NCBI GenBank assembly: GCA_902801985.1
Contig: CADCKD010000017.1
Location: 10,162 to 74,161, forward strand
Source: an uncultured bacterium
GTDB taxonomy: Bacteria; Cyanobacteriota; Vampirovibrionia; Gastranaerophilales; Gastranaerophilaceae
Length of the DNA: 64,000 nucleotides
Reading direction: 5' to 3'
In this document: piece by piece, positions 8,024 through 45,341 of the stretch
How the letters are laid out: every line of letters starts with the position of its first letter
How positions within the stretch are numbered: position 1 is the stretch's first letter
Translations under genes and position numbers: made by a program
Notes under the pieces: generated by a model
Databases searched by the model: none
What the model was told of the DNA's origin: nothing
Seen by the model: only the letters and a program-made list of their open reading frames with translations

Positions 8024-8077
8024 AAAAAAGAGGTCTATGATCTCTTTTTTATGGTGGGCATTATAATGCTTGAGTTG
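8024..8077 (-). repeat. degenerate second copy of (tRNA-Val 3' end + hairpin terminator)
   Basis: aaaaaagaggtctatgaTctctttttt---atggtgggcAttataaTGctTgaG aligns with 8193-8249 (aaaaaagaggtctatgaCctcttttttttTatggtgggcGttataaGActCgaA). Confidence 0.7.
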
Positions 8078-8190
8078 TTGTTGAGAGCAGGGAGCTCGAA
8101 ACATACAAATCAAGTATGTCGACATAGTCGACTGACGAGGGCAAAATGTTATAAAAGACATTTTGCATTTCGAGGCTTATTGGCCGACAT
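8078..8190 (-). other. structured non-coding insert: four-way junction, cloverleaf-like
   Basis: Closing helix ctcgaaa (8095-8101) / tttcgag (8168-8174) encloses three hairpins: catac-7nt-gtatg (8102-8118), gtcgac-ata-gtcgac (8118-8132) and gcaaaatgt-8nt-acattttgc (8140-8165). Confidence 0.45.
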
Positions 8191-8222
8191 AAAAAAAAGA
8201 GGTCTATGACCTCTTTTTTTTT
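8191..8222 (-). terminator. rho-independent terminator after tRNA-Val
   Basis: agaggtc-tat-gacctct stem flanked by an A-run and a T-run. Confidence 0.8.
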
Positions 8223-8223
8223 A

Positions 8224-8299
8224 TGGTGGGCGTTATAAGACTCGAACTTATGACCCTCTCCTTGTAAGGGAGACGCTCTACCAACTGAGCTAAACGCCC
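8224..8299 (-). tRNA. tRNA-Val (anticodon TAC), CCA encoded
   Basis: Reverse complement folds as a cloverleaf: GGGCGTT / GCTC-AGTTGGTA-GAGC / TCTCC-CTTACAA-GGAGA / GGGTC / ATAAG-TTCGAGT-CTTAT / AACGCCC-A-CCA. Confidence 0.95.
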
Positions 8300-8353
8300 T
8301 TATAACTATTTATTTTTCAGCTATAAACAAGGCTTGTACCCTGTGCAAGATTT

Positions 8354-8382
8354 ATACTAGCAAGAACATATTTTTCTGTCAA
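8354..8382 (-). promoter_or_regulatory. candidate promoter for tRNA-Val (TTGACA-17 nt-TAGTAT on minus strand)
   Basis: Reverse complement of 8377-8382 is TTGACA and of 8354-8359 is TAGTAT. Confidence 0.45.
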
Positions 8383-45024: not shown

Positions 45025-45097
45025 GCGCTTGTAGCTCAGCAGGTAGAGCACTCCCCTTTTAAGGGATAGGTCGCGCGTTCGAATCGCGCCAAGCGCA
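45025..45097 (+). tRNA. tRNA-Lys (anticodon TTT), CCA not encoded
   Basis: GCGCTTG / GCTC-AGCAGGTA-GAGC / CTCCC-CTTTTAA-GGGAT / AGGTC / GCGCG-TTCGAAT-CGCGC / CAAGCGC-A. Confidence 0.95.
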
Positions 45098-45099
45098 AA

Positions 45100-45134
45100 A
45101 TAAACGAGATAGGTTTTCTGTCTCGTTTATTTTT
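45100..45134 (+). terminator. terminator after tRNA-Lys
   Basis: ataaacgaga-11nt-tctcgtttat followed by a T-run. Confidence 0.8.
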
Positions 45135-45326
45135 GTTTTGGTAGCGATGAGAACGCCATTTTGCGTTCGGCGGATTTTGTGTAGGGCGGATGTGAGCGGA
45201 TGCGAACGCAGACCCGTAAGGTGCGAGAGCAATTACGAATGGCAGCAAAGCGAAATGAGTACTTGCTCGAAGCACAGCAAAATCCAAGACTTATATGAGT
45301 CACGTCGATAGCGAGCGAAGTGATTT
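45135..45326. other. GC-enriched non-coding insert between tRNA-Lys and the repeat of its 3' end
   Basis: Visibly more GC-rich than its surroundings. Contains gaacgc-6nt-gcgttc and three GCGGAT repeats. No convincing ORF. Confidence 0.4.
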
Positions 45327-45341
45327 ATCGCGCCAAGCGCA
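45327..45341 (+). repeat. exact 15-nt direct repeat of the tRNA-Lys 3' end (atcgcgccaagcgca)
   Basis: Identical to 45083-45097. Confidence 0.85.

Follow-up and report, generated by a model that had tools for sequence, protein, structure and literature searches.

A family of hairpin-rich, gene-less units behind tRNA genes in gut Melainabacteria

Known tRNA-associated elements and the tRNA-Val locus

Among described systems, the tRNA-targeting genomic islands, including the tycheposons of Prochlorococcus, come closest to the sequences considered here: they occupy sites in tRNA and transfer-messenger RNA (tmRNA) genes, restore the tRNA, leave a partial-tRNA direct repeat, stack with the newest element nearest the tRNA, and bear an integrase. 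Integration into tRNA genes reportedly falls into sublocation classes (T-loop, anticodon loop). A second point of comparison is offered by integron attC sites and the attP site of CTX phage, which combine variable sequence with conserved hairpins, bulges, a hypervariable tip and almost exclusively Watson-Crick pairing. Here we analyzed a stretch of 64,000 nucleotides (nt) from contig CADCKD010000017.1 of an uncultured Gastranaerophilaceae bacterium (hereafter the window; the genome has 2.14 Mb, 33% G+C and is 99.9% complete), in which an intact tRNA-Val(TAC) gene is followed by a short hairpin-rich insert and a copy of the tRNA's own 3' end.

Judged from sequence comparison, this insert is one copy of a previously undescribed family of ~115-base, hairpin-rich, gene-less units ("type B") behind tRNA genes of gut Melainabacteria. 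The family has tRNA-specific tails, a common junction position, covariation, Watson-Crick-only pairing, patchy occupancy, tandem arrays and no coding capacity, and a literature search returned only classical tRNA islands, integrons and tycheposons, with no such units described. The units resemble the islands in their tRNA and tmRNA sites, their T-loop junction (the anticodon loop for a sister core, type C), the restored tRNA, the partial-tRNA repeat and the stacking order. In contrast to the integrase-bearing islands, type B units have neither integrase nor replication module, are usually gene-less and measure ~160 nt, and where islands have an AT-rich arm with protein-binding direct repeats, the type B arm consists of conserved, covarying hairpins. 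The tRNA-Val locus likewise has the tRNA 3' direct repeats and the loop junction of an island, with no integrase inside its 123-nt insert.

The locus spans positions 8024-8382 of the window on the minus strand, in the order promoter, tRNA-Val(TAC), hairpin, insert, tRNA 3' end copy and second hairpin. The arrangement of tRNA-Val, terminator, insert, tRNA-end copy and second terminator proposed in the first-pass annotation of this DNA was correct, as read in the sequence and by repeat comparison. The features are as follows:

8354-8382, minus strand: sigma-70-like promoter of tRNA-Val (TTGACA, 17 nt, TAGTAT with TG), from a promoter scan
8224-8299, minus strand: tRNA-Val(TAC), intact, CCA encoded (ARAGORN; Rfam tRNA model, 75 bits)
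8224-8238, minus strand: direct repeat copy 1, comprising T-stem 3' strand, acceptor 3' strand, discriminator and CCA of tRNA-Val
8191-8223, minus strand: terminator-like hairpin 1, with a G+C-rich 6-bp stem (GAGGTC/GACCTC), a 3-nt loop and a flanking A-run and T-run, read from the sequence and repeated at 8024-8051
8067-8190, minus strand: non-coding insert, 123 nt
8169-8190, minus strand: type B leader, with a degenerate inverted copy of the tRNA 3' end (GTCGGC), a T-stem 5' strand copy (ATAAG) and a conserved TCGAA
8141-8166, minus strand: hairpin hp1 (helix 1), 9 Watson-Crick bp, hypervariable in sequence across copies with pairing retained
8132-8140, minus strand: conserved single-stranded motif CCTCGTCAG, its GTCAG invariant in 12 seed copies, with variants such as GTTCAG among wider copies
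8118-8132, minus strand: hairpin hp2 (helix 2), 5-6 bp, covarying between copies
8069-8118, minus strand: conserved CATAC, then hairpin hp3 (helix 3), long and interrupted
8052-8068, minus strand: CA as the junction dinucleotide, followed by copy 2 of the direct repeat (the tRNA 3' end, displaced or duplicated)
8024-8051, minus strand: terminator-like hairpin 2, repeating hairpin 1 except for one mismatch in the stem

The last 15 nt of tRNA-Val are copied at 8052-8066 with 1 mismatch, and the join within 8052-8068 lies at the first base of the T-stem 3' strand, following the same junction rule as in other copies. By chance a 15-nt tail match is expected 0.06 times per window, and two matches occurred in 0 of 100 shuffles. 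The tRNA end and the terminator together form a 48-nt repeat (89% identical) whose copies lie 172 nt apart. Neither hairpin was flagged by the terminator scanner, probably due to the A/T runs extending the stem; their terminator nature is read from the sequence. The insert folds more stably than shuffled sequences (z = -5.9, equaled by 0 of 200 shuffles; -5.9 and -6.4 for the two strands), with hp3 forming an interrupted hairpin of 16 bp at 8069-8114. Reading frames crossing the insert (35-71 amino acids) all run on into flanking DNA and none is conserved in homologous copies, and a scan of the tRNA strand found no sigma-70-like promoter for the insert. When all Rfam families were applied strictly, only two tRNAs passed the gathering score in the 64-kb window, and permissive Rfam scans of type B units and of the sister type A units gave chance-level matches only.

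Type B copies across the genus and their hairpins

BLAST matched the distal half of the insert (CATAC and hp3) at 89% identity to two copies that lie in tandem on contig 6 of the window's genome. A covariance-model search identified ~130 type B copies in 52 of the 76 genomes of the genus (at most 10 per genome), many of them in tandem at a spacing of 145-180 nt. An exact-pattern scan of one genome per species placed type B in rumen and gut metagenome-assembled genomes labelled Melainabacteria, Gastranaerophilales or 'Cyanobacteria UBA3301', the sole exception being a short contig binned as Muribaculaceae. For 31 copies in fetched loci the nearest upstream tRNA was Leu(TAG) (12 copies), Leu(GAG) (6), Val(TAC) (3), Val(GAC) (2) or Leu(CAG) (2), while 6 of the 31 had no tRNA within 700 nt upstream; the units in 30 fetched loci were gene-less. 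With more than 100 copies in the genus at no fewer than five tRNA species, the multiple copies beside other tRNAs that the first-pass annotation had proposed to look for do exist. Each unit ends with the local tRNA's own last 12-17 nt, and the join falls after T-loop position 56 (56/57) or at 61/62, the first base of the T-stem 3' strand. Leaders often hold a copy of the T-stem 5' strand (ATAAG for Val(TAC), GGG for Val(GAC) and Leu(GAG)), and they also hold an inverted copy of the tRNA 3' end plus trailer that covaries with the original (GGTGGGC/GCCCACC, TAATTGGGC/GCCCAATTA).

For the structural analysis 12 homologues were aligned as a seed and used to build a covariance model, and its 43 matches were re-aligned, leaving 39 distinct sequences; hp1 was analyzed both per sequence and via the covariance model. 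The structure conserved over these 39 homologues is a series of three successive hairpins. Of these, hp1 has 9 bp in the window copy and 11-13 bp elsewhere, perfectly paired although its sequence is almost wholly different among copies, with double changes in 12 of 12 pairs and 97% of cells paired; hp2 has 5-6 pairs; and hp3 has a conserved lower stem (CTTGA-T-TTGT / ACAA-CTCAAG) with a conserved bulged T and a covarying tip. The single-stranded motifs between the hairpins (TCGAA, GTCAG, CATAC, CAAGCA) show little or no variation in the 12 seed copies, and TCGAA and GTCAG vary among more distant copies. Standard pairs made up 94.9% of cells, as compared with 70.6% in shuffles (0 of 500 reaching the observed value) and 34-46% with slid partners; the alignment was fitted to the model, which inflates this fraction and counts against the DNA-element reading favored below, but the slid controls and the per-sequence folds agree with the values. 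Double-sided changes were present in 28 of 33 pairs (shuffle mean 21.4, with none of 500 shuffles at 28), and compensatory cells numbered 290 where 81 were expected. The covariation check proposed in the first-pass annotation therefore came out very strongly. Its cloverleaf-like fold, in which a 7-bp closing helix enclosed three hairpins and the last resembled a T-arm, was not recovered: the homologues show serial hairpins and no conserved closing helix, and neither ARAGORN nor the Rfam tRNA model called a tRNA on 8052-8190.

G-U pairs are nearly absent from type B, with only ~5 of 1227 cells in the alignment and 3 G-U against 345 Watson-Crick pairs in single-sequence folds. In RNA families G-U pairs and one-sided changes are the usual path of stem evolution. 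Because type B departs from this path, the pattern suggests that complementarity is kept at the DNA level, in DNA hairpins rather than RNA.

At least three further core types (A, C and D) obey the tRNA-tail rule of type B in the window's genome, where ~20 tRNA and tmRNA genes are affected in all. A tail search found a second tail copy 120-230 nt downstream of 15 tRNA or tmRNA genes (that of tRNA-Gln being a weak, two-mismatch match), a search for the leader motif brought in tRNA-Gly(TCC), Arg(CCT) and Ser(TGA), and further tail searches added His, Asp and Gly(GCC). Most affected genes carry type A, a core of ~100-130 nt with one long irregular hairpin, tandem G-A pairs, GNRA-capped hairpins, a covarying 3-4-bp helix and ~5% G-U; in front of the core stands a hairpin with a 3' strand identical to the T-stem 5' strand followed by TTC. 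Type A occupies at least 15 tRNA species; its cores are not confined to tRNA contexts, one being located in the 3' end of an open reading frame. Sampling 166 genomes of the family gave its exact 3' motif in 30, against 0 of 36 from the order's other families (control matches 0-1). In type C, the core stands in place of the anticodon loop in a tRNA-Met fragment, and type D is found behind tRNA-Asp. The T-loop of this same tRNA-Met fragment is cleanly interrupted on contig 22 by a type A core, placed between TTCG and AATC, and the twin fragment on contig 5 has no interruption; the two represent a filled and an empty site. Attempts to read the GATGA motif of type A leaders as a hammerhead, C/D-box or kink-turn found no support, and group I, group II and archaeal-type tRNA introns were rejected (the interrupted copies have no tRNA 5' half, the cores are too small, and there is no reverse transcriptase). 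The window itself holds a second instance:

45025-45341, plus strand: tRNA-Lys(TTT), terminator, type A (subtype 2) unit and the tRNA 3' end copied exactly over 14-15 nt

This tRNA-Lys unit, which is G+C-richer, obeys the logic seen at tRNA-Val but belongs to another core class.

A structured small RNA gene, expressed by read-through from the tRNA promoter and acting either as a regulatory RNA or as a guide-like RNA (a hairpin scaffold with a 15-17-nt 3' guide identical to the tRNA sense strand), is on balance unlikely. It would account for the constant placement of units on the tRNA strand with a terminator always after them, for the (near-)invariance of TCGAA, GTCAG, CATAC and CAAGCA in the 12 seed copies (the first two varying in distant copies), and for the type A features (GNRA loops, tandem G-A pairs, the covarying 3-4-bp helix, and a sense strand that folds better than the antisense, summed -691 vs -595 kcal/mol). 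The 100-150-nt scaffold, the ~16 nt identical to the flank and the terminator match the anatomy of TnpB/IscB omega-RNAs and Cas12 guides, and the conserved T-loop could act as their adjacent motif. Unlike those systems, however, the window's genome has no detectable TnpB/Cas12-type zinc-ribbon domain, G-U pairs are nearly absent in type B, and the unit's target, the intact tRNA gene, adjoins it and would be self-targeted. The scan found no sigma-70-like promoter of the unit's own, and a terminator stands between tRNA and unit; the tails decay, with 1 mismatch in the window and CCA or more lost elsewhere; some units lie far from any tRNA promoter, behind oppositely oriented cargo genes; no Rfam family matches; and the 99.9% complete genome yielded no TnpB, IS110, Cas1 or reverse transcriptase gene.

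Miniature inverted-repeat transposable elements (MITEs), REP/BIME and ERIC sequences, Rickettsia palindromic elements and palindrome-associated transposable elements (PATEs) are likewise small (~100-130 nt), non-coding, hairpin-forming, multi-copy and lineage-specific. They differ from the units, whose site is strictly inside the T-arm of the tRNA 3' copy and whose repeats are 12-17 nt of tRNA rather than short target duplications. As regards MITEs in particular, no terminal inverted repeats were found, and the direct repeats are 12-17 nt or at least 48 nt and always tRNA ends; as regards IS200/IS605 PATEs, no HUH (RAYT/TnpA) gene was found in the window's genome.

Boundaries, occupancy and candidate routes of insertion

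At 30 tRNA-Val(TAC) loci in the genus, ~9 carry a unit and the rest are empty, several of the empty sites having identical tRNA sequence; one locus keeps only the terminator and the first 33 nt of a unit. Some of the occupied sites hold type B, and one genome has type A only where its sister genome has A then B, that is, tRNA-A-tail against tRNA-A-tail-B-tail, with its own terminator type per unit. The first-pass annotation had held that its reading would fail if related genomes showed unstructured drift from a simple local duplication, and they show instead empty sites, occupied sites and tandem arrays. A local tandem duplication of the tRNA end followed by drift, with hairpins formed by chance in AT-rich DNA, would explain why the two copies of tRNA end and terminator are near-identical at such a short distance. 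It is scarcely credible, as the 123 nt between the copies are not tRNA-derived and are homologous at other tRNAs and in other genomes, and the fold (z = -5.9), the massive covariation and the genus-wide family data refute it.

At the cleanest loci (Leu(GAG) and several others) the direct repeat stops exactly at the discriminator base, and the tRNA-proximal repeat runs into CCA and terminator while the distal repeat runs into unrelated flank without CCA; the inserted DNA therefore brings the CCA and the terminator. It consists of CCA, terminator, leader and three hairpins, and is bounded by the 12-17-nt tRNA-end repeat. At other loci, including the window, the repeat extends through CCA and terminator and sometimes into the leader, and these are tandem or once-tandem arrays. 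Across the genome CCA is encoded by 11 tRNA genes and the tmRNA gene only, and at least 8 of these 12 have a unit, tail copy or leader behind them, which suggests that an encoded CCA and terminator were often brought by inserted elements. For annotation this means that, in these genomes, both the tRNA genes that encode CCA and the terminators behind them may derive from elements.

Our favored reading, for which we see about an even chance, is that the insert is a miniature, non-autonomous, T-loop-directed integrative DNA element whose hairpins act as a folded-DNA site and which is mobilized in trans. The first-pass annotation had named three options, of which the miniature tRNA-targeting element is now best supported and the small RNA gene is disfavored by the near-absence of G-U pairs. 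The mobile unit would be ~160 nt long and comprise, from the tRNA side, CCA and intrinsic terminator, a short leader, hp1, hp2 and hp3. It would recombine into the tRNA gene at a junction that falls either within the T-loop or on the first base of the T-stem 3' strand, in a presumed direction such that the tRNA keeps a complete 3' end, gaining the element's CCA and terminator, and the original tRNA 3' end (12-17 nt) ends up beyond the hairpins as a direct repeat. The hairpins would be selected as DNA structures, presumably folding into a single-strand recombination site like integron attC or CTX phage attP, and the recombinase would be supplied in trans, most plausibly by one of the genome's tyrosine recombinases. 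Tandem arrays could then arise from repeated events or from unequal crossing-over between repeats, and repeat recombination could remove units; the repeat covering CCA and terminator in the window may reflect a second insertion round followed by loss, or gene conversion between nearby copies. The junction in the T- or anticodon loop, the restored tRNA, the partial tRNA left behind and the newest units nearest the tRNA are classical marks of integrase-type insertion. Unusual are the tiny, gene-less unit, the conserved hairpin distal arm, and the recurrence of the same core classes behind many tRNAs with matching tails.

The comparison with integrons extends beyond the pairing of the hairpins to arrays in which types A and D alternate with single genes (Fic, GNAT, ADP-ribosyltransferase-like). 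The units differ in that no IntI-type integrase was found in the window's genome and the platform is a tRNA gene rather than attI; an attC site forms one hairpin where type B has three separate ones, and the cargo genes of units stand in either orientation. Inspection of the alignment by eye showed no R''/R' boxes (RYYYAAC / GTTRRRY) at the hp3 base or at unit ends.

We also searched the genome for enzymes, with control genomes matching in the profile searches for TnpB (PF07282), the HUH Y1 transposase TnpA (PF01797), IS110, reverse transcriptase, serine recombinase and Cas1 (PF01867), none of which had a match in the window's 99.9% complete genome. Eight tyrosine recombinases are present: two Xer-like, one XerA-like on a 3.5-kb contig, and the rest of phage or island type. 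None of the 8 lies inside a unit, and two are within 0.7-2 kb of one, one of these being a prophage integrase. One small-contig protein passes the broad XerA-type model only; the contig of the XerA-like recombinase (contig 62) was considered as a source and rejected, since it bears no unit. A shared cargo protein as the missing enzyme was also rejected, the two cargo reading frames compared being unrelated.

Several observations weigh against an integrative DNA element of this kind. No recombinase was found in or consistently beside the units, and none of the 8 tyrosine recombinases attains the cut-offs for an integron integrase (TIGR02249, NF011946). IMG/VR yielded no free copy, circular or phage-borne: the type B motif had no matches there and 57 type A pattern matches were all due to chance, none passing the profile. 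The tRNA-specific 3' end hinders retargeting, yet type B occurs at five or more and type A at 15 or more tRNA species; a target-duplicating staggered cut would explain this retargeting better, but would not explain the CCA at the start of the insert. An RNA would be equally compatible with the conserved single-stranded motifs, with units that always point along the tRNA strand and with a terminator that follows every tail, and type A has RNA-like features (GNRA-capped hairpins, tandem G-A pairs, ~5% G-U).

Transposon-like staggered cuts, in the T-loop and at or beyond the tRNA 3' end, followed by gap repair duplicating a 12-48-nt target as for casposons and CRISPR spacers, would give a perfectly matching tail and an intact tRNA at every tRNA with an element that itself carries nothing tRNA-specific. 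Casposons reportedly duplicate 14-15 bp at the tRNA 3' end, and in this integration site and in the ~15 bp duplicated they resemble the units. They differ in that no Cas1 was found here and that the unit is 100 times smaller and carries CCA and terminator. We regard this route as very unlikely: neither Cas1 nor another candidate enzyme was found in the genome, two TnsB/TnsC-like transposons present there would give 5-bp duplications, the CCA directly after the discriminator at several tRNAs fits a carried tRNA 3' end rather than target duplication, and leaders often hold tRNA-specific T-stem 5' strand copies.

The insert might instead be a scar, the attR-side arm of a larger element or prophage that integrated in the tRNA-Val T-loop and lost its interior, leaving functionless hairpins. 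Partial tRNA repeats behind tRNA genes are the classic integrase mark, and successive integrations are described as leaving stacks of partial tRNAs (tycheposon preprint, doi 10.1101/2020.12.28.424599). The same genome has a classical 7.8-kb tRNA-Met island (contig 4:24974-32900; L028 covers the integrase end) with a 51-nt tRNA repeat and an integrase beside attR. As an internal contrast, this island has arm-type direct repeats (TTTGTCGTAA) at both ends and an AT-rich arm, with no structured core of the type B kind. A prophage also lies beside type B units: its left junction is 60 nt past tRNA-Val(GAC), its right junction is where the type B array on contig 6 begins, and its end (L242:1-3800, contig 6; contig 54:1-110) encodes an integrase, a GIY-YIG-like protein, an XRE repressor and an ImmA/IrrE peptidase. 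The prophage attL and attR, however, share the crossover AAGGG inside the leader of the type B unit behind tRNA-Val(GAC), and the unit is therefore the target and not part of the phage. More than 100 copies with the same boundaries and three hairpins at five or more tRNA species are not expected from random deletions, and the structure is actively maintained by compensatory change. We consider a scar decidedly unlikely; both it and a simple duplication are hard to square with the family-wide conservation.

The favored element could be part of something larger, although we think this rather unlikely: an undescribed Gastranaerophilaceae cassette system in which attC-like or guide-like folded sites steer a trans-acting recombinase to the T- or anticodon loop of almost any tRNA or tmRNA, each event adding a tRNA 3' end, CCA and terminator, some with accessory genes, so that tRNA genes would together act as a distributed integron-like platform. 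The component parts are of known kinds (partial tRNA repeats, hairpin recombination sites, miniature repeats), and their combination in a multi-class, tRNA-wide mini-element appears new. If the units are active, tRNA-gene integration would be reducible to ~160 nt of structured DNA; the same logic retargeted to some twenty tRNA genes in one small genome would imply recognition by shape or target copying rather than by a fixed attachment sequence. This, if true, would be of interest for integrase and integron evolution and for programmable insertion.

Cargo genes and neighboring mobile DNA

In other genomes type A units alternate with single genes (GNAT acetyltransferase, Fic, DUF2157, amidohydrolase, flavodoxin), and at some loci single accessory genes, or a prophage, lie between leader and core, the cargo genes standing in either orientation. 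The window's genome has a 1.3-kb segment that is bounded by type D units and contains a single ADP-ribosyltransferase-like open reading frame. The unit repeats break assemblies, for example at the end of contig 2, which breaks 23 nt after tRNA-Val(GAC).

Cargo elements with TGT..ACA ends, conserved subterminal regions and one open reading frame each are inserted in unit tails or leaders at L245:3150-4410 (contig 22), at L246:1780-3200 (contig 5 end) and from contig 27:15067 onward. The reading frame of one is weakly ADP-ribosyltransferase-like, and a 5-bp duplication (CTCTC) lies on either side of the copy on contig 22. Two pairs of TnsB/TniA-like and TnsC/TniB-like transposases are encoded at L282:7297-10809 (contig 2) and L283:49-3209 (contig 46); the contig 2 copy has a third protein with only integrase SAM-like N-terminal domains and carries as cargo an AAA ATPase and subtilase pair and an MqsR/MqsA toxin-antitoxin pair. 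The TGT..ACA elements are probably due to these two TnsB/TnsC-like transposons and represent a separate system in the same neighborhood; the transposons were rejected as mobilizers of the units, to which they are unrelated.

A cluster of eleven tRNA genes in 6 kb (contig 1:52010-58073) lies ~10 kb from a phage-type integrase (contig 1:68118-69137) and is probably a phage- or island-borne set. A short palindromic repeat (TGTCATTGCGAG ... GAAGCAATCCAG) at L002:1785-1830 and several other loci (contigs 5 and 13) is intergenic and abuts truncated units; it is a separate REP-like family.

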